A stretch of DNA of 43,719 nt from a virus (Duplodnaviria; Heunggongvirae; Uroviricota; Caudoviricetes): the IMG/VR virus record IMGVR_UViG_2660238269_000008; one strand, written 5' to 3'. This document shows, piece after piece, positions 12,145 to 22,208 of this stretch (position 1 is its first letter; the number at the start of each line of letters is the position of its first letter). The notes beneath the pieces were generated by a model. That model was not told the DNA's origin, did no database searches, and worked only from the letters and a program-made list of their open reading frames with translations. Both the position numbers and the translations under genes were made by a program.

Positions 12145-12435
12145 CCTGGTCTGAAGCATTCCACAACGGTAGGAATCGCACTGGCGGTGGCGCTGGTGGT
12201 GTATTCGATTTGCCGCTGGGGATAAAAACGGTTTGCGGGAAAAGGAGAGTTAAGTAGAATTGCTGCGGGTGCTTGAGGCTGTTTGCCTCGGGCATGCCGC
12301 CGTAAGGCAGACAGAGAAAAGCCCCAGTTAACATTACGCGTCTTGCAGGACGCTTAACATTAATCTGAGGCCCAATCTATGCTTCACAAACGTAGGTTAG
12401 CCTCTTACGTGCCGAAAGGCAAGGAGAAGCAGGCT

Positions 12436-12591
12436 ATGAAGCAGCAAAAGGCGATGTTAATCGCCCTGATCGTCATCTGTTTAACCGTCATAGTGACGGC
12501 ACTGGTAACGAGGAAAGACCTCTGCGAGGTACGAATCCGAACCGGCCAGACGGAGGTTGCTGTCTTCGTAGACTACGAATCTGAGAAGTAA
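12436..12591 (+). CDS. hok: Hok/Gef-family type I toxin (HokD/RelF-like)
   Basis: MKQQKAMLIALIVICLTVIVTALVTRKDLCEVRIRTGQTEVAVFVDYESEK is near-identical to HokD/RelF as recalled; long structured leader upstream and hairpins downstream. Confidence 0.9.
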   Translation: MKQQKAMLIALIVICLTVIVTALVTRKDLCEVRIRTGQTEVAVFVDYESEK

Positions 12592-14446: not shown

Positions 14447-14809
14447 ATGCTCATAGATTTGGTTTTACCTTACCCGCCGACGGTGAACACTTACTGGCGA
14501 CGCCGTGGCAGCACATATTTTGTATCAAAAGCCGGGGAGCGTTATCGCCGGGCAGTGGCGCTTATTGTTCGCCAGCAGCGACTGAAATTAAGCCTGTCCG
14601 GACGGCTGGCAATAAAAATTATTGCAGAGCCACCGGATAAGCGCCGCCGTGACCTGGACAATATTCTGAAAGCACCGCTGGATGCGCTGACGCACGCGGG
14701 GTTGTTAATGGACGATGAGCAGTTTGATGAAATCAATATTGTACGTGGCAAGCCAGTATCTGGTGGACGGCTGGAGATAAGAATTACAGAGGTGGGTGTG
14801 CATGAATAA
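14447..14809 (+). CDS. rusA: Holliday junction resolvase RusA
   Basis: 120 aa; DKRRRDLDNILKAPLDALT and GGRLEIRITE align with RusA RRRDLDNLQKAAFDALT ... GGRLELTITE. Confidence 0.9.
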   Translation: MLIDLVLPYPPTVNTYWRRRGSTYFVSKAGERYRRAVALIVRQQRLKLSLSGRLAIKIIAEPPDKRRRDLDNILKAPLDALTHAGLLMDDEQFDEINIVRGKPVSGGRLEIRITEVGVHE

Positions 14810-15467
14810 CCAGTATTTACAGTTTGTTCGTGAGCAACTCATGATTGCCACTGCGGATCTTAGTGGGTCGACAAAAGGCCAGCTGGAAGTCTGGCAGGAA
14901 AATGCCCTGTTCGATACAGGGCGTTACAGACGCAAAAAAATTCGTTACCGCGATGAGGTAACCGGAAAAATGATCACGCGGGATAATCCCCCGATCCCGG
15001 GTAAACAATCACTGGCGAAAGGCTCATCAATTGCCCTGGTCAGTCCGGTTGAGTTTTCGACATCATCATGGCGACGCGCCGTTCTGTCTCTTGAAGAACA
15101 TCATAAAGCCTGGCTGCTGTGGTGTTACAGCGGTAGCATTTGCTGGGAGCATCAGATCGCGATAACGCAGTGGGCGTGGACTGAATTTAATGCTCAATCC
15201 GGTACCAGAAAAATTGCAGGAAAAACTCTGGTGCGCCTGAAGACGTTGATCTGGTTGGCGGCGCAGGCGGTAAAAGCTGAGCTTTTTGGTGGGGAAGGTT
15301 ACGAATACCAGGAACTGGCGTTACTGGTGGGAGTAACAACCAAAAACTGGTCCAAGACATTTACTGGTCACTGGGTTGCAATGAAACACATTTTTCATCG
15401 GCTGGATAGTGAAGCTTTATTGTTGGTGGAGGGAACACGTTCAAAACAAAAGGCGGCATTTTCATAG
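14802..15467 (+). CDS. Q: Late-gene antiterminator Q (non-lambda Q family)
   Basis: Position between rusA and a promoter plus short-RNA terminator; 222 aa. Confidence 0.65.
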   Translation: MNNQYLQFVREQLMIATADLSGSTKGQLEVWQENALFDTGRYRRKKIRYRDEVTGKMITRDNPPIPGKQSLAKGSSIALVSPVEFSTSSWRRAVLSLEEHHKAWLLWCYSGSICWEHQIAITQWAWTEFNAQSGTRKIAGKTLVRLKTLIWLAAQAVKAELFGGEGYEYQELALLVGVTTKNWSKTFTGHWVAMKHIFHRLDSEALLLVEGTRSKQKAAFS

Positions 15468-15719: not shown

Positions 15720-16433
15720 ATGGATGACAGTGCTCTGCTCAGAAACTCTTCACTTTTTGTTGCTTATATGGGCTGTCTCGGATGGGGGAGCGCTTATTTC
15801 TATGGGTGGGGTACTTCATTTTACTATGGCTTTCCATGGTGGGTTGTCGGGGCTGGTGTCGATGATGTAGCACGAAGTTTGTTTTATGCTGTGACAGTTA
15901 TTGTTATATTCCTTATTGGATGGGGAGTTGGTATTGTTTTCTTTTTGGGCATAAAACAAAAGCGCAATATACAAAATTTGAGTTTTATCCGGCTTTTTCT
16001 CGCGATATTGCTGCTTTTTATTCCACCTGTTCTGGAGTTTTCTGTAATTCATCAGCATGTTGAGCCAGATGTACTGATTTTCTGCGTTCTTGCTGCCTTT
16101 GCAATCACGCTTTTTGTCAGGTCTGGAAGAAGACTTGTTTCAGTCAAATGTTTTTCGGAAATGTCTGTTATTCGCCATCACCGAATTGAGTTCATGATGG
16201 CTGGGTTTATGATTTATTTCTGGGCATTCTCTCTTATTGCCGGTTGGTACAAACCACAGTTTAAGAGGGAATATCAGGCGGTCCACTATGAGAATGTATG
16301 GTATTACATTATTGCGCGCTATGATGATCGTCTGGTGTTATCGAAATCATACAGGAGTGGGGGTAAGAAATTCGTTATATTTAATAGCGGAAATATTAAT
16401 GATTTTGAAATTAATACTGTCAGAGTACGTTAA
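15720..16433 (+). CDS. Integral membrane protein (about 5 TM segments), unknown function; moron downstream of PR'/tR'
   Basis: 237-aa ORF; hydrophobic segments rich in G/W/F/Y; AT-rich, unlike the flanking phage genes. Confidence 0.6.
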   Translation: MDDSALLRNSSLFVAYMGCLGWGSAYFYGWGTSFYYGFPWWVVGAGVDDVARSLFYAVTVIVIFLIGWGVGIVFFLGIKQKRNIQNLSFIRLFLAILLLFIPPVLEFSVIHQHVEPDVLIFCVLAAFAITLFVRSGRRLVSVKCFSEMSVIRHHRIEFMMAGFMIYFWAFSLIAGWYKPQFKREYQAVHYENVWYYIIARYDDRLVLSKSYRSGGKKFVIFNSGNINDFEINTVRVR

Positions 16434-16607
16434 AATTTCCTGAGTAATAAAGATTTTACTGCCCGGCATTGAGCGGTTTTTTTATGCCAGAAAAATGGTG
16501 CAGTACATAAAATGTGCAGGTGGTTATTAATACCGGTCTTTCAGCTTGCTGGCTTTTTTGACAAGAGTTATTGGTGTGTCACGTTAACCGGAAAAGGGAA
16601 AAAGACA

Positions 16608-16804
16608 TGCTGAAACAGCAGGATATGACAGAAACCGCCAGAGCAGTTTTTAATGAATTAAGTGCCACCGAACCGGCGACAGTCGGGGAGATTGCACAGA
16701 ATACGTACCTTTCACGCGAACGCTGCCAGCTAATACTGACCCAGCTTGTTATGGCGGGTCTGGCAGACTATCAGTTTGGTTGTTACAGACGCCTTCAGTC
16801 CTGA
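16608..16804 (+). CDS. Small winged-helix-like protein (65 aa)
   Basis: ATG at 16608 preceded by AAAGGGAAAAAG; within ORF 16571..16804. Confidence 0.45.
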
Positions 16805-16955
16805 AGGCTTTTTTATTTGTGGTAAATGGGCGGCTGGTGGGTGTTAGGGGCACTCACCAGCCATCTGCTCATGCGTTGGGGTCACAAGCAAACCTCAGGC
16901 CCATCTGCTTTGCGCAAAAGCGGTATGAGCCTATCAGAGACAGGCTTAATGATCC

Positions 16956-18014
16956 ATGTTTAATACTGTAAAAATATCCAGTTGTGAGTTAATCAACGCC
17001 GACTGCCTGGAATTTATCCGGTCGTTACCCGAAAATTCTGTTGACCTGATAGTCACGGACCCGCCGTACTTTAAAGTGAAGCCTGAGGGCTGGGATAACC
17101 AGTGGACGGGTGATGAGGATTACCTGAAATGGCTGGACCAGTGTCTGGCGCAGTTCTGGCGGGTGCTGAAACCTGCCGGAAGTCTTTACCTGTTCTGTGG
17201 CCATCGCCTGGCATCTGATATCGAAATCATGATGCGTGAACGCTTCAGTGTGCTGAACCATATTATCTGGGCGAAGCCGTCCGGACGCTGGAACGGGTGC
17301 AACAAGGAAAGCCTGAGGGCGTATTTCCCCGCCACAGAGCGCATTCTGTTCGCGGAACATTATCAGGGGCCGTATCGTCCGAAAGATGCCGGGTATGAGG
17401 CGAAGGGCAGGGCACTGAAACAGCATGTGATGGCTCCGCTGATTGCTTACTTTCGTGATGCGCGTGCTGCCCTGGGGATAACGGCAAAACAGATAGTGGA
17501 TGCCACAGGAAAGAAAAACATGGTGTCGCACTGGTTCAGTGCCAGTCAGTGGCAGCTACCGAACGAAAGTGATTATCTGAAATTACAGGCGCTGTTTGCC
17601 CGGGTGGCAGAAGAGAAGCATCAGCGCGGTGAACTGGAAAAGCCCCACCACCAGCTGCTGGAGACGTATACTTCACTGAACCGGCAGTATGCGGAACTGC
17701 AGAGTGAATATAAGCATCTGCGGCGGTATTTTGGCGTGACGGCGCAGGTGCCATACACGGATGTGTGGACGCATAAACCGGTGCAGTACTATCCCGGGAA
17801 ACATCCGTGCGAAAAACCGGCAGAAATGCTGCAGCAGATAATCAGCGCGAGCAGTCGTCCGGGGGACCTGGTTGCAGATTTCTTCATGGGGTCGGGTTCG
17901 ACAGTCAAAGCCGCGATGGCGCTGGGGCGTCGTGCAACTGGCGTTGAGCTGGAGACTGAACGTTTTGAGCAGACGGTCAGGGAAGTACGGGATTTAGTCA
18001 GTCAGAATGGATGA
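16956..18014 (+). CDS. Orphan DNA methyltransferase (amino-MTase, beta class: DPPY motif IV precedes FxGxG motif I)
   Basis: VTDPPY near the N-terminus, DLVADFFMGSGST near the C-terminus, with a charged/coiled-coil-like segment between; no adjacent restriction endonuclease. Confidence 0.85.
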   Translation: MFNTVKISSCELINADCLEFIRSLPENSVDLIVTDPPYFKVKPEGWDNQWTGDEDYLKWLDQCLAQFWRVLKPAGSLYLFCGHRLASDIEIMMRERFSVLNHIIWAKPSGRWNGCNKESLRAYFPATERILFAEHYQGPYRPKDAGYEAKGRALKQHVMAPLIAYFRDARAALGITAKQIVDATGKKNMVSHWFSASQWQLPNESDYLKLQALFARVAEEKHQRGELEKPHHQLLETYTSLNRQYAELQSEYKHLRRYFGVTAQVPYTDVWTHKPVQYYPGKHPCEKPAEMLQQIISASSRPGDLVADFFMGSGSTVKAAMALGRRATGVELETERFEQTVREVRDLVSQNG

Positions 18015-18054
18015 TATTGCAGGATTAGTTACGTACCGTTATTATCCTGCGCCC

Positions 18055-18130
18055 GGCCCTTTAGCTCAGTGGTGAGAGCGAGCGACTCATAATCGCCAGG
18101 TCGCTGGTTCAAATCCAGCAAGGGCCACCA
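18055..18130 (+). tRNA. ileZ: tRNA with CAU anticodon (Ile2, lysidine type; ileZ-like)
   Basis: Hand-folded cloverleaf: acceptor GGCCCTT/AAGGGCC, loop CTCATAA, T-loop TTCAAAT, 3' CCA; closely resembles E. coli ileX as recalled. Confidence 0.85.
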
Positions 18131-18139
18131 TATCACATA

Positions 18140-18216
18140 CCGCCATTAGCTCATCGGGATAGAGCGCCAGCCTTCGAAGCTGGCTGCGCGGGGTTCGAGT
18201 CCTCGATGGCGGTCCA
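18140..18216 (+). tRNA. tRNA-Arg (anticodon read as UCG)
   Basis: Hand-folded cloverleaf: acceptor CCGCCAT/ATGGCGG, anticodon stem CCAGC/GCTGG, loop CTTCGAA, T-loop TTCGAGT, 3' CCA. Confidence 0.75.
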
Positions 18217-18494
18217 TTATCTGCATTATGCGTTGTTGGTTCTGATGAGTGAATCATTGTCTTTTGAGCAACAGGCTATCATATAAGATAGCCTCAGACT
18301 TCCTTGTTTATTCTCGCCGGATGCTTCGTAGATATTTGCAGGCATCTGTATGCAGGGGTATTATTGCGGCATATATCATCCGGAAAAATAAAAACTACAT
18401 GCTGATCCGGAGATGATAGTTACAAGTCCTCCCGGATCCCGCATATTTACTATATTTTATAGATAATTGTTCTTGTTAATATGGAGATGGATAA

Positions 18495-18923
18495 ATGTAT
18501 TGCCGTGCTGTACCTGTTCTTGTTTTGATATTAGCCAGTCTGACAACTGGCTGCACAAAAGATGTATCGACAAATAATCATGATGCTTCTCTGTATCACT
18601 CAGATAAATTAATAAAGTCGCAAAATTTGAGCTCATCGGAACGTACCCCTGATGCCAGTGAAGAAATCCGGCAGTATGCCATTCAGGTCAGGAAAGCCAT
18701 AGAAGAACAGTTAAAGGATGCGAGTAAGTATTCAGGAAAAGAGTGTTCACTGAGAATGTATATGGCCCCGAATGGTCTTCTGCTACAGGTTAAAAGAGAA
18801 AGCGGTGATCCCGATTTATGTCGTGAAGCGATGAATGCAGTAAAGAATGCTGATATACCATCACCACCGTCTTCAGGAGTATATAAAGCATTTAGAAATG
18901 GCGTGCTGGATTTTAAACTCTGA
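18495..18923 (+). CDS. Lipoprotein with a TolA C-terminal domain III-like fold
   Basis: Signal peptide with lipobox LTTG-C; residues 60-142 align with E. coli TolA C-terminus (YAGKTCTLRIKLAPDGMLLDIKPEGGDPALCQAA...PKPPSQAVYEVFKNAPLDFKP vs SGKECSLRMYMAPNGLLLQVKRESGDPDLCREA...PSPPSSGVYKAFRNGVLDFKL). Confidence 0.8.
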   Translation: MYCRAVPVLVLILASLTTGCTKDVSTNNHDASLYHSDKLIKSQNLSSSERTPDASEEIRQYAIQVRKAIEEQLKDASKYSGKECSLRMYMAPNGLLLQVKRESGDPDLCREAMNAVKNADIPSPPSSGVYKAFRNGVLDFKL

Positions 18924-18980: not shown

Positions 18981-19240
18981 TCTGTGAAGTGTTAAATCCC
19001 TCACAATTCAGTAAGTTGACAGTTGCCTGTCAGACTGAGCATTTGTTAAAAAAATTTCGCATGGTGAATCCCCCTGTGCGGAGGGGCGACTGGTGAACGG
19101 TATGATCTCTTTGATGATCGTAAGCGAGAATACGCGGGTTTGGTGTCACCGGGCTGAACTCACCGGGAGGCACCCGGCACCATGCTCATGGTGATACAGA
19201 AATGCGGCTTCAGCCCCTCTCCGGAGGGGCTTTCTTATGG
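18981..19240 (+). repeat. Isolated copy (U1) of the ~250-bp hairpin-rich repeat family, ending in an intrinsic terminator
   Basis: Carries the three conserved modules tgttaaat.cctcaca, catggtgaatccccctgtgcggaggggc and ctcaccgggaggcacccggcaccatg, then gcccctctccggaggggc plus T-rich tail. Confidence 0.8.
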
Positions 19241-19384
19241 ACAAAAAAAGCCCGCGCTGGGAGACGCGGGCGGCAAGGAATAAACAATAAAACGTGAAGT
19301 AATACTTCAACTGGCGAATAATACCCGACAGTAATCACTCTGCGCAATAGCGTGGCCTTTTTCGAATTGCGGGCTGTAGTCTCC

Positions 19385-19556
19385 CTTCTGCCGGGTGTCC
19401 AGGTTGCAGATTTCTTCATGGGGTAGGGTTCGGCAGTTAAAGCAGCGATGGCGCTGGGGCGTCGTGCAACTGGCGTTGAGCTGGATACCGGGCGTTTTGA
19501 ACAGACTGCGCAGGAAATCAGGGATGTATTTAGCGGGAGCGGTTTGCAGAAGTAAT
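19385..19556 (+). pseudogene. 3' remnant of a second, diverged DNA methyltransferase gene
   Basis: High by-eye identity to the 3' end of the intact MTase (17866..18014), ends at an equivalent stop, but has an in-frame TAG in place of the MTase TCG codon and no 5' part. Confidence 0.75.
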
Positions 19557-19618: not shown

Positions 19619-20344
19619 ATGGATGTTGCCTGCTCTGTGGTCCTGATTCGCTATCCGATAGATATTTTTCTTGAAAAAGAAAAAGTTTCACTCGATGCCG
19701 GAAGTGTTATGCTTGTTGCCAGAAATATAAGAGGGCTTTTCTGTGCTTATGCCGACAGAGTGAAAATGGCAGATATAAGTAACAGCGTCGTCAATCAGTA
19801 TCTGGAAAGGGAGTGTGAACTGACGGAGTATACACCGACAAAAATGCCTCTTTATTTGATGTCTGATATTTACAATACGGAACTGGCGGAGGCTTTAATA
19901 ACCCAGCATAGTGAATCCAGTGATACTTTGAAGGATTTCTCTGTTATAACCGCATTTTCATGTATCTCCTTATTTGCAACAGACAGACGTCTGCCATTAT
20001 TTTTGTCCGGTGCTGTAAATAATATCAGCTGTAAAGTAAGGGCTATAATTCAGACCGACATATCGGCAGGCTGGATGCTTGGTGTGATTGCATTACAATT
20101 GCATATGAGCGAAAGCTTGTTGAAGCGAAAACTTAAGGATGAAGGTTATAGCTTTAGTCGGTTGTTGCTGGAGGAGCGAATGCGTGTTGCTGTTAATCTT
20201 GTATGTTTCCAGCGAGAGTGTGGACAAGCGATAGCGGAAAAATGTGGTTACTCAAGTAAGTCCTACTTCATTTCTGTATTTCACCAGTATTATGGTGCAC
20301 CACCTGAGAGCTATGCATATTTGCAGAAAGCAGACGTTATCTGA
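19619..20344 (+). CDS. AraC/XylS-family transcriptional regulator, AppY/EnvY/AdiY-like
   Basis: C-terminal dual HTH aligns with EnvY/AppY (..CGYSS.SYFISVF...YG..P..Y); 241 aa; AT-rich. Confidence 0.8.
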   Translation: MDVACSVVLIRYPIDIFLEKEKVSLDAGSVMLVARNIRGLFCAYADRVKMADISNSVVNQYLERECELTEYTPTKMPLYLMSDIYNTELAEALITQHSESSDTLKDFSVITAFSCISLFATDRRLPLFLSGAVNNISCKVRAIIQTDISAGWMLGVIALQLHMSESLLKRKLKDEGYSFSRLLLEERMRVAVNLVCFQRECGQAIAEKCGYSSKSYFISVFHQYYGAPPESYAYLQKADVI

Positions 20345-20954: not shown

Positions 20955-21980
20955 ATGGAAATGTTAAATGACTCACAATTCGGTTGATGGGCTATTGTCT
21001 GATCGATGGAAGTCTTGTAAAAACGAGCCAGCATAGTGAATCCCCCTGTGCGGAGGGGCGTCTGACATGGTCTCCATAGCGATGGTCACAATACGCAGAT
21101 TCAGTAGTCAGGCTGAATCTACCGGGAGGCACCCGGCACTATGCTGCTTATGGTGTATACATAGCGATCGGCCCCTCTCCGGAGGGGCTTTTTTTGTGCG
21201 GGAAAAGGCTGTGTTGTTAAGTGTTAAATTCCTCACAGTTCAGATGGTTGATGCTTGCCTGTCTGAGGGGGAGTTGTTAAAAAAGTTCTGCATGGTGAAT
21301 CCCCCTGTGCGGAGGGGCGACTGGTGTGATTTGCATCTTTTCTGTTGTAGGCAATGCAAACGCGGGTTCAGGGACACCAGACTGGACTCACCGGGAGGCA
21401 CCCGGCACCATGTTCATGATGATACAGATACGCAGTGTCAGCCCCTCTCCTGAGGGGCTTTTTTATGCAGGAAAAACGCTGTGTTGTGAAATGTTAAATT
21501 CCTCACAGTTCAGATGGTTGATGCTTGCCTGTCTTACGGGGAGTTGTTAAAAAAGTTCTGCATGGTGAATCCCCCTGAGCGGAGGGGCATATCAGCGCAG
21601 GTGTTTCTACTCTATCCTTTCTGTGCGGGTTCAGGTGCTGATACTGAACTCACCGGGAGGCACCCGGCATCATGCATATGGTTAACAGACACGTAGCGAA
21701 GCCCCTCTCCGGAGGGGCTTTTTTATGCAGGGAAAAGGCTGTGTTGTGAAATGTTAAATTCCTCACAATTCATGAGGTTGATGATTGTCTGATTGATGAG
21801 GAGTTTGTTAAAAAAAACGGGCATGGTGAATCCCCCTGTGCGGAGGGGTGATATCGTATCATTTCCTGTGTGGCCGACTGATATCACGGACATTTGTTCA
21901 CCGGGAGGCACCCGGCACCATGCAGTATACAGAGATTAGGCATACATCCAGGCTCCTCATCGCAGGAGCCTTTTTACATG
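20955..21980 (+). repeat. Tandem array of four ~250-bp units (U2-U5) of the hairpin-rich repeat family; candidate structured ncRNA genes
   Basis: Units at about 20955-21196, 21205-21465, 21481-21726, 21741-21980; same conserved modules in each; variable segments keep self-complementarity; each unit ends in a terminator hairpin plus T-run. Confidence 0.8.
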
Positions 21981-22208
21981 TAAAAAAAAACCGCTCCTGG
22001 GAAGAGCGGTTGGCAAGGAAGCAAGGAATAAATAACAAAACGTGAAGTAATTTATTCAGCACCCTAATAATACCTTAGAGTAATCACCTTGCGCAACTGT
22101 AAGGGCGTATTTCTTTTTTGCGGGCTGTTTTTCTGTGTGACTTTTGTGTTTCCGGAGGTCAGCCCGTGCCTTCTCTGACTCAGAACATTATCCCGGCCGG
22201 GAGGATTC

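Follow-up and report, generated by a model that had tools for sequence, protein, structure and literature searches.

A prophage-borne adenine methyltransferase gene of the M.EcoGII family and the structured leader that precedes it

The window, the whole 43,719-nucleotide stretch of viral DNA that we analyzed (IMG/VR record IMGVR_UViG_2660238269_000008), carries a DNA methyltransferase (MTase) gene at positions 16956 to 18014 of the plus strand, within a lambdoid prophage. All of the features described here lie on this strand, and their annotated context was taken from a RefSeq strain that is 100% identical to the window over positions 16500 to 18250. On the 5′ side lies the gene for antitermination protein Q (14796 to 15467; PF06323, Phage_antiter_Q, E = 1.3e-90; "bacteriophage antitermination protein Q" in RefSeq), and between it and the MTase cassette is an ORF for a 237-residue membrane protein. 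A 65-residue winged-helix ORF and a structured leader of ≈130 nucleotides then precede the MTase start codon. Directly 3′ of the MTase are two phage tRNA genes (18055 to 18216), detected by ARAGORN and Rfam, one with a CAU anticodon (ileZ type) and the other a tRNA-Arg (UCG); they are annotated as tRNA-Ile and tRNA-Arg in RefSeq and probably belong to the same late unit as the MTase. TolA-like and AraC-like ORFs are also among the neighbors. A position between Q and the tRNAs (ileZ/argN type) or lysis genes is the usual one for the family: Q on the 5′ side, with tRNAs followed by stx2 or lysis genes on the 3′ side, is the arrangement in this prophage, in Stx2 phages, in phiP27, and around 52 to 64%-identical homologs, and in Stx phages the MTase–tRNA block precedes stx2AB. 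Because the cassette lies directly upstream of stx2 in many Stx phages, its regulation is part of the toxin's late transcription unit.

The 352-residue product matches the Pfam N6_N4_Mtase family (PF01555) over residues 29 to 340, with an E-value of 6.9e-44 and a score of 150.9 bits (cut-off, 26.7). The catalytic motif IV, DPPY, is found at residues 35 to 38 (nucleotides 17058 to 17069), and motif I, FMGSGST, which binds AdoMet, at residues 310 to 316 (nucleotides 17883 to 17903). Motif IV thus lies ahead of motif I, which is the β-class order, and the original prediction of a β-class amino-methyltransferase is upheld. That prediction had named inactivity of the catalytic motifs as grounds for its own rejection; they are instead intact and conserved among 62 relatives, in which Asp35 and Gly312 are invariant and Pro36, Pro37, Tyr38, Asp308, and Phe310 are each conserved in at least 90%. 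The gene is under purifying selection, with a pN/pS of 0.16 relative to phage phiP27. Its description as a phage-borne orphan also holds, as no restriction endonuclease was found among the annotated RefSeq neighbors or in a PADLOC scan, in which the sole match is the MTase_II model; the adjacent cognate endonuclease by which a Type II restriction–modification system is recognized is therefore lacking.

The encoded enzyme is a near-copy of M.EcoGII, which is sold as a reagent and is standard in chromatin footprinting. The two proteins are identical at 325 of 349 aligned residues (93%, two gaps) when the window protein is compared with the M.EcoGII sequence in the supplement of PMC11551740, of which we used a machine-read copy containing a few obvious reading errors. 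Once these errors were corrected, no exact match to the M.EcoGII sequence was found in the database, where the nearest 349-residue member differs at ≈20 positions. The ≈24 substitutions relative to M.EcoGII are concentrated in residues 234 to 254 and in the C-terminal tail, and the window protein, at 352 residues, ends in DLVSQNG, whereas M.EcoGII, at 349, ends in DLIV. M.EcoGII itself comes from a prophage of E. coli O104:H4 C227-11 (Murray et al. 2018, PMC5778455). A second prophage of the same strain encodes M.EcoGI, a member of the same family that is reported to be identical to M.EcoGII at 333 of 349 residues (PMC5778455). Beyond the full-length identity, the window enzyme shares with M.EcoGII the order of its motifs, a central helix-turn-helix (HTH) bundle, a charged two-helix arm, and its status as a prophage-borne orphan; residence in a lambdoid late region was observed for the window gene and its relatives only and not for M.EcoGII itself.

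At E < 1e-30, relatives comprise 303 representatives of 50% identity clusters, and genes of the M.EcoGII kind are extremely common in E. coli, with sequence matches in 3307 of 5426 complete genomes. According to the original M.EcoGII paper, members of the family reside in prophages of E. coli, and a very similar MTase is carried by phage 1720a-02 (PMC5778455); the DNA of this phage is 97.2% identical to our query over 99% of the query length. A coiled-coil-like insert was originally noted in the enzyme, but this does not set it apart, since it is an allele of M.EcoGII at 93% identity. Because it so closely copies a well-studied prophage enzyme, the finding is an ordinary one. The enzyme family, its non-specificity, its prophage location, its silence in the lysogen, and its charged helical arm are all already published, and the window enzyme as such adds little to them.

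An AlphaFold2 (AF2) model of the MTase (pLDDT 94.6, pTM 0.89) predicts a Rossmann-fold core in two parts (≈1 to 134 and 260 to 352), between which a four-helix HTH bundle is borne on an arm made of helices 147 to 173 and 238 to 255. This central non-core region, a predicted target-recognition bundle with its two-helix arm, spans residues 135 to 259 (nucleotides 17358 to 17732) and contains five helices (147 to 173, 177 to 184, 190 to 194, 204 to 223, and 238 to 255); charged residues make up a fraction of 0.32 of it, as compared with 0.23 to 0.25 in the core. The predicted helix positions agree with the published model of M.EcoGII, in which the core comprises residues 1 to 134 and 260 to 349, the target-recognition domain (TRD) residues 160 to 237, and the remainder a charged linker that is partly two-helix (PMC11551740). 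The Rossmann core, the DPPY motif, and an FxGxG motif are shared with the structurally characterized β-class enzymes M.BceJIV (8urk/9c3u), CcrM (6pbd), M.RsrI (1eg2), and M.MboIIA (1g60), and the window core superposes on those of M.BceJIV, CcrM, and M.RsrI. Matches to solved β-class enzymes have sequence E-values of 1e-24 to 1e-15 and Foldseek E-values of ≈1e-16, with TM-scores of 0.55 to 0.77 on the target and ≈0.5 on the query. These enzymes align only at residues ≈8 to 142 and ≈281 to 344, leaving the intervening stretch unmatched; unlike the window MTase, they have short TRDs with no alignment to residues 135 to 259, and all are site-specific.

A further group of loosely specific adenine MTases, M.EcoGIX and M.BceJIII, resembles the window enzyme in being carried on mobile elements, with a representative in the same outbreak strain, but these belong to another family of plasmid leading-region genes and differ in their SAY specificity and in their single-stranded DNA substrate (PMC7736820). 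We rejected M.EcoGIX as the identity of the window MTase, given its plasmid location and different family, and the corresponding NCBIfam plasmid model (PRK13699/NF010253) gives only a partial match over residues 260 to 335 (7.9e-23), its 81 bits falling far under the cut-off of 244.

Whether the enzyme modifies the N6 of adenine or the N4 of cytosine, which the original prediction had left open, is settled at the family level: the product is N6-methyladenine, made without sequence specificity. M.EcoGII methylates adenine in any context, with modification of up to 86% of dA in cells and 99% in vitro (PMC5778455), and engineered ancestors of the family are still largely non-sequence-specific (PMC11551740). 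From the 93% identity, together with the non-specificity of these more divergent reconstructed relatives, we infer that the window allele would likewise methylate adenine in any context. For a non-specific family, a REBASE search would return "non-specific" and no motif. We consider it highly probable that the window gene is an allele of the M.EcoGII/M.EcoGI family, whose members occur in lambdoid prophages of Enterobacterales, and that it encodes an AdoMet-dependent, sequence-non-specific N6-adenine MTase that would be expressed late, in a Q-dependent manner, and would mark progeny DNA with m6A to evade restriction.

The NCBI names for this cluster, "site-specific DNA-methyltransferase", suggest a different enzyme, an ordinary orphan Type II MTase whose central helices read a defined motif and which regulates host or phage genes epigenetically. 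The central HTH bundle is of a kind able to read bases, and the 24 differences from M.EcoGII fall mainly in the central region. There is also a site-specific relative, M.PflMI, whose target is CCANNNNNTGG. M.PflMI is described as having a similar overall predicted fold that includes the TRD, but the same description sets it apart as sequence-specific and without the highly charged linker arm (PMC11551740), which is present in the window MTase. The NCBI name, moreover, is a generic rule-based label, and for genes of this kind the automatic annotation "site-specific" is misleading. Against a defined target stand the 93% identity to an enzyme of demonstrated non-specificity, the close relationship between M.EcoGI and M.EcoGII (PMC5778455), the prediction of "nonspecific" for 92 to 93%-similar homologs by homology to M.EcoGI/GII (PMC6602927), and the persistence of non-specificity in reconstructed ancestors that are far more divergent than the window allele (PMC11551740). 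Site-specific recognition by the window enzyme is thus very unlikely.

One segment of the protein was originally taken to be a charged, coiled-coil-like insert of ≈90 residues. The peptide quoted for it is real, but it is 56 residues long (204 to 259; nucleotides 17565 to 17732), and the whole non-core region comprises ≈125. It does lie where a TRD is expected; it is, however, part of the conserved TRD and two-helix arm of the family and not an insert. In the AF2 model, helix 204 to 223, a loop at 224 to 237, helix 238 to 255, and the sequence RRYF follow one another, the first helix being the last of the bundle and the second the return helix of the arm. No other part of the protein evolves as fast, yet this one too is under purifying selection (pN/pS 0.32). 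The motif YxxLRxxYExLRxEYExLRRPF is kept in relatives at 33 to 45% identity, and Arg257 and Phe259 are conserved in at least 90% of the 62 relatives. Since the segment can be aligned in relatives down to ≈35% identity, it is ancestral to the family, and we assign it to the conserved module with which these enzymes bind nucleic acid.

These properties bear on the proposal that helices 204 to 259 form a true coiled coil, a module acquired for oligomerization or for docking to a phage or host protein in place of a lost TRD. All six a/d heptad positions of helix 238 to 255 are hydrophobic or aromatic, the charge content exceeds that of the core, and enzymes of the M.EcoGII family are dimeric by gel filtration (PMC11551740). 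The published dimer interface, however, is formed by residues 97 to 110 and 116 to 140, outside this segment, and in the M.EcoGII model the two helices belong to different elements, the first to the TRD and the second to the linker (PMC11551740). In the window model they are parted by a 14-residue loop, and an acquired module is at odds with the alignability of the segment in distant relatives. We accordingly regard a true coiled coil as highly improbable. It is barely credible that RNA is the physiological substrate, with m6A placed on late phage transcripts or on the adjacent tRNAs and DNA methylation secondary: M.EcoGII is active on single-stranded DNA and, in vitro, methylates single-stranded RNA as well as RNA paired in hybrids (PMC5778455), and in E. 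coli phages the MTase gene is always immediately 5′ of phage tRNA genes, but its activity on RNA is much below that on DNA (≈10% of rA as compared with 43% of dA in a DNA/RNA hybrid; PMC5778455), efficient RNA methylation needed engineering (PMC11551740), and in other genera tRNAs are absent and holin and lysozyme genes directly follow the MTase.

The region upstream of the MTase gene contains elements that may bear on its expression. The 65-residue ORF extends from its ATG at 16607 to 16804 (open from 16571), one base from the start at 16608 originally given. Its proposed winged-helix character is supported by Pfam matches to TrmB (6e-4), HTH_24, and MarR_2, all weak and under their cut-offs, and from an AF2 model of a winged helix (pLDDT 87.6, with only one of five models confident) that is nearest to the winged helices of IclR-type proteins, SelB, and MarR. 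The ORF belongs to phrog_331 (2.8e-37) and is under purifying selection (pN/pS 0.13 relative to phiP27). Of 80 genome loci, 63 have a homolog of this ORF, 38 to 95% identical, directly on the 5′ side of the MTase. We rejected the protein as an obligatory partner of the MTase, as it is missing 5′ of homologs that are 64%, 52%, and 45% identical, from 15 of the 80 loci, and from Stx2c phages. Overlapping the end of this ORF, a terminator scan identified a hairpin (16791 to 16818) with a 7-bp stem containing four GC pairs, a 4-nucleotide loop just 5′ of the stop codon, and a T-rich tail; the T6ATTT that follows it in the window gives it the look of an intrinsic terminator. Most Enterobacteriaceae loci have an equivalent hairpin in which the stem sequences differ, and the T-rich tail, judged by eye because automatic counting of T runs is confounded by alternative folds, is present in only some loci and missing in many other genera. 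The scan found no promoter-like site between the hairpin and the MTase ATG.

The leader itself (16823 to 16955) ends at the MTase AUG, which lacks a Shine–Dalgarno sequence, and was analyzed with RNAalifold and pair counting. It has two domains. Its helices are P1 (16826 to 16831 paired with 16867 to 16872), the P2 hairpin (16832 to 16862), P3 (16880 to 16888 paired with 16945 to 16954), which covers positions −11 to −2 of the start codon, and P4 (16897 to 16903 paired with 16926 to 16932), which encloses an inner hairpin around 16908 to 16925. Across 26 sequences, the consensus of 32 pairs is formed in 96.8% of cells, many of the pairs being G-U, as compared with 24 to 40% in slid controls. 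Compensatory changes support 10 pairs, as compared with 3.6 ± 1.4 in shuffled alignments, and none of 500 shuffles reaches 10. The window sequence on its own gives the same fold (MFE −72.4 kcal/mol, z = −4.0). In 45 of 78 loci, nhmmer detects a single copy of the element, which ends at the MTase ATG, and the leader is conserved across Enterobacterales from Escherichia to Providencia and Proteus; in Xenorhabdus and Photorhabdus, the first hairpin domain alone is weakly detectable. A search of the leader against Rfam gave no hit that passed the gathering thresholds, and relaxing the limit to E ≤ 10 brought up noise alone. A 45-residue ORF (16826 to 16963) that overlaps the MTase start was considered as a coupled small protein and rejected, as stops and frame changes interrupt it in most loci and it is the nucleotides that are conserved.

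The structured leader is possibly the one new item at this locus. One idea, which we put forward tentatively and would sooner doubt than assert, is that the leader and the often-linked winged-helix protein form a dedicated post-transcriptional switch that holds a toxic methylase off until late lytic growth. Such a switch could act through protein binding, through binding of a metabolite such as SAM or SAH, or through RNase processing. Further study could be worthwhile only for the leader and the winged-helix protein, which may explain how a phage safely carries a methylase that, if unchecked, would modify the entire chromosome of its host.

Returning to the M.EcoGII-type reading, the gene lies 3′ of Q behind a terminator-like hairpin and a leader that pairs close to its start codon, and so it should stay silent in a lysogen until induction, when Q-modified RNA polymerase would read through and the enzyme would be produced. 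M.EcoGI and M.EcoGII are reported to be silent in normal growth and in the lysogen, and their constitutive expression is deleterious and slows growth (PMC5778455), which makes the altered host methylation originally suggested unlikely in a lysogen. Silence until Q acts is proposed by analogy, because the 237-residue membrane ORF intervenes after Q and the T-rich tail is missing in many other genera. Once made, the enzyme, probably a dimer, would contact DNA over an extensive basic surface, with no readout of the bases, and would flip out and methylate a large fraction of adenines, as was demonstrated for M.EcoGII. The winged-helix protein and the leader RNA might restrict the amount or set the timing of an enzyme whose constitutive production is toxic. 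Progeny phage DNA would then be packaged heavily modified with m6A, so that it should resist the numerous restriction enzymes of Types I, II, and III that are blocked by adenine methylation. An anti-restriction role, which was also part of the original prediction, has been proposed for the M.EcoGII family (PMC5778455) and may apply here by analogy. Our literature search found no paper reporting hypermethylated virion DNA of such phages or an increase in plating efficiency on restricting hosts due to the MTase, and nothing relevant on an MTase in the Stx pR′ region.

Further downstream (19391 to 19533) lies a pseudogene, the 3′-terminal remnant of another MTase gene belonging to this family. 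It is an 84%-identical direct repeat of positions 17859 to 18001, and RefSeq annotates it as "DNA methyltransferase", partial and containing an internal stop.

Motif order, 93% identity, domain architecture, and its setting as an orphan gene in a prophage all place the 352-residue methyltransferase (MTase) encoded at 16956-18014 on the + strand in the M.EcoGI/GII family. The original prediction of a beta-class enzyme with motif IV before motif I holds, with a PF01555 (N6_N4_Mtase) match of 150.9 bits, DPPY at residues 35-38, and FMGSGST at residues 310-316. M.EcoGII is a 349-residue beta-class enzyme from a prophage of E. coli O104:H4 that methylates adenines whatever their sequence context (86% of dA in vivo, up to 99% in vitro), also uses ssDNA, hybrids, and RNA as substrates, and is silent in the lysogen and harmful if constitutively expressed (PMC5778455). 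Compared with the M.EcoGII protein in the supplement of PMC11551740, the window MTase is identical at 325 of 349 residues, and the true value is probably slightly higher because the sequence used is a machine-read copy with a few obvious errors; once corrected, this copy had no exact match among database sequences. The differences concentrate in residues 234-254 and the C-terminal tail. Given this identity, together with identical catalytic and cofactor motifs, the window MTase represents one allele within the M.EcoGI/GII family. The DNA of phage 1720a-02, named in the M.EcoGII paper as the carrier of a very similar MTase, matches at 97.2% identity over 99% of the query. A methylome study of O111 STEC also lists prophage-encoded homologs of M.EcoGI/GII, with a predicted specificity of "nonspecific" (PMC6602927). 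For the family, it is established that adenines are N6-methylated in an AdoMet-dependent manner with no sequence preference, that constitutive expression is toxic, and that the gene is silent in lysogens; the same would be expected of this allele. The plasmid ssDNA MTase M.EcoGIX was rejected as its identity. Overall, the enzyme is of an already known kind, from a well-known family, and offers little new.

The original prediction had described a coiled-coil-like insert of about 90 residues between the catalytic and AdoMet-binding regions; the description is accurate, but framing the enzyme as an unusual, insert-bearing MTase is not. The helical stretch is real, but the peptide in question comprises 56 residues (204-259) of a non-core region of about 125 residues. 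An AlphaFold2 model built with 62 relatives as input (pLDDT 94.6, pTM 0.89) places five helices between the core halves, at residues 147-173, 177-184, 190-194, 204-223, and 238-255. These agree with the published M.EcoGII model, in which a Rossmann core (1-134 and 260-349) flanks a four-helix helix-turn-helix bundle (160-237) that serves as the target-recognition domain, together with a long, highly charged linker of partly two-helix structure; the linker is proposed to provide an extensive basic surface on which nucleic acids bind non-specifically (PMC11551740). M.EcoGII runs as a dimer with an interface at residues 97-110 and 116-140, and its site-specific relative M.PflMI lacks the charged linker (PMC11551740). 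On the basis of this agreement, residues 204-259 correspond to the last bundle helix and the arm's return helix, joined by a loop, and are not an insertion peculiar to the window gene. An exhaustive profile search returned 303 cluster representatives at E < 1e-30, many aligning end-to-end at 35-47% identity, and the motif YxxLRxxYExLRxEYExLRRPF is conserved in the 62-sequence alignment, with R257 and F259 at 90% or more. The helical feature is thus a published, conserved part of a known enzyme. By sequence and fold, the solved beta-class enzymes M.BceJIV, CcrM, M.RsrI, and M.MboIIA match only at the Rossmann core halves (roughly 8-142 and 281-344), and no counterpart of the middle of the MTase was found in these four structures. 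In comparison with phage phiP27, both the MTase (pN/pS 0.16) and the small upstream ORF (0.13) are under purifying selection; residues 204-259 are the most relaxed part of the MTase, at 0.32 versus 0.07 in the N-terminal core.

The window is an E. coli lambdoid prophage. Its 16500-18250 segment matches chromosomal DNA of strain 2011C-3911 and of two bovine isolates at 100% identity, and 3307 of 5426 complete E. coli genomes contain similar DNA. The + strand carries, in order, RusA, the antiterminator Q (14796-15467; PF06323, E = 1.3e-90), a 237-residue multi-pass membrane ORF, a 65-residue ORF, the MTase, two tRNAs (18055-18130 and 18140-18216), an ORF with a TolA C-terminal domain, a 3' MTase remnant, and an AraC-like ORF, with a nanS-like esterase, holin, lysozyme, and terminase farther downstream. 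The membrane ORF (15720-16433; phrog_1521), which lies between Q and the MTase cassette, has no match in Pfam, NCBIfam, or PADLOC; it is missing from the Stx2_EH1910 phage, where the 65-residue ORF follows Q by at most about 230 bp. The first tRNA is called Met (anticodon CAT) by ARAGORN versus an ileZ-type tRNA-Ile in RefSeq and phage records, a reading that would require lysidine modification. In Stx2a, Stx2d, and Stx2e phages, the small ORF-MTase-tRNA block lies directly 5' of stx2AB at 87-98% DNA identity. In every context examined (this prophage, Stx phages, phiP27, and homologs of 64% and 52% identity), the MTase sits in the late region downstream of Q, and what comes next is either tRNAs/stx or, immediately, the holin and lysozyme genes. 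As anticipated, neither annotation nor a PADLOC scan revealed a restriction enzyme near the MTase, which does not belong to a restriction-modification system.

In the window, the MTase is preceded by a hairpin (16791-16818, +) that resembles a canonical terminator, T-run included, and overlaps the end of the small ORF around its stop codon; no promoter-like site was found before the MTase ATG. Across genera, the stem sequences have changed yet the hairpin is kept. The T-run is found in E. coli, E. albertii, some Enterobacter, and a few others, and the U-poor tails elsewhere imply a good terminator in some lineages only. From this layout, we infer that Q-modified polymerase would, after induction, read through into the MTase, with the 237-residue ORF intervening after Q. 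The enzyme would then methylate replicating phage DNA, and virion DNA would resist adenine-methylation-sensitive restriction. A role in restriction evasion was proposed for the family by Murray et al. (PMC5778455); we found no paper testing it on phage particles.

The leader RNA upstream of the MTase and perhaps its winged-helix neighbor are the sole elements here that look undescribed, and they alone merit a small follow-up. Over the spacer between the small ORF and the MTase, roughly 150 nt, the window and phiP27 share about 92% identity, above that at the synonymous sites of the flanking genes. A 45-residue ORF inside the leader (16823-16955, +; about 130 nt) was ruled out as conserved coding sequence since it is broken at most other loci, and the conservation is thus non-coding. 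RNAalifold on 26 sequences predicts two domains: a long hairpin (P1/P2), followed by a stem of three levels (P3-P5). The outer helix of this stem forms between GGUCA.AAG and CUU..UGAUC and ends two bases 5' of the AUG. Counted on the sequences from which the structure was itself derived, which favors it, 96.8% of cells are paired versus 24-40% in slid controls, and compensatory changes, seen across Enterobacterales, occur in 10 of 32 pairs versus 3.6 ± 1.4 in shuffles (0/500). G-U pairs are far more frequent than A-C pairs, favoring a + strand RNA over a palindrome in the DNA. Folded alone, the window leader adopts the same structure (-72.4 kcal/mol, z = -4.0). By nhmmer, 45 of 78 loci carry the leader, each in a single copy that runs up to the MTase ATG; among them are loci that lack the small ORF, as well as the 64%-identity clade. 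The Photorhabdus sequences retain a weak trace of the first hairpin only. It has no match in Rfam. The MTase AUG lacks an obvious Shine-Dalgarno sequence and the bases 5' of it fall within predicted P3, making it plausible that the leader limits or times MTase translation.

The 65-residue ORF (16607-16804, +; phrog_331, function unknown in PHROGs) has weak winged-helix Pfam matches, in line with its original description. Its AlphaFold2 model is a canonical winged helix, confident in one of five models and nearest to IclR-type DNA-binding domains, SelB RNA-binding winged helices, and MarR. A one-genome-per-species scan gave 80 loci with MTase homologs (62-99% identity) in Escherichia, Salmonella, Klebsiella, Citrobacter, Enterobacter, Mixta, Erwinia, Buttiauxella, Xenorhabdus, Photorhabdus, Providencia, and Proteus. 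A homolog of the ORF (38-95% identity) lies directly 5' of the MTase in 63 of these; its absence from other loci and from Stx2c phages marks it as a frequent but dispensable partner.

Several other features accompany the cassette. At 19391-19533 (+) lies what remains of another MTase gene from this family, its 3' end, 84% identical to 17859-18001 and annotated as a pseudogene in RefSeq; the remnant suggests that recombination within MTase genes exchanged in the tRNA/TolA-like block. The 142-residue TolA-like ORF (18495-18923, +; PF06519, 5.7e-23; phrog_5772, function unknown) occupies the position of stx in Stx phages. Its hydrophobic N-terminus followed by Cys is possibly a lipoprotein signal, and the protein might act as a decoy for phages or colicins that depend on TolA. 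Adjoining the MTase remnant, an AraC-family regulator (19619-20344, +; HTH_18/HTH_AraC; phrog_1450) fills a late-region cargo slot. The prophage sRNA STnc100 (RF02076, 119-172 bits), tied to PasD sRNAs in a 2026 preprint, is present in five copies (19030-19242 and 21002-21981, +), four of them in tandem 5' of the esterase gene. In the early region, a sok antisense RNA (12267-12441, +; RF01794, 115.8 bits) adjoins an annotated hokD-like toxin gene.
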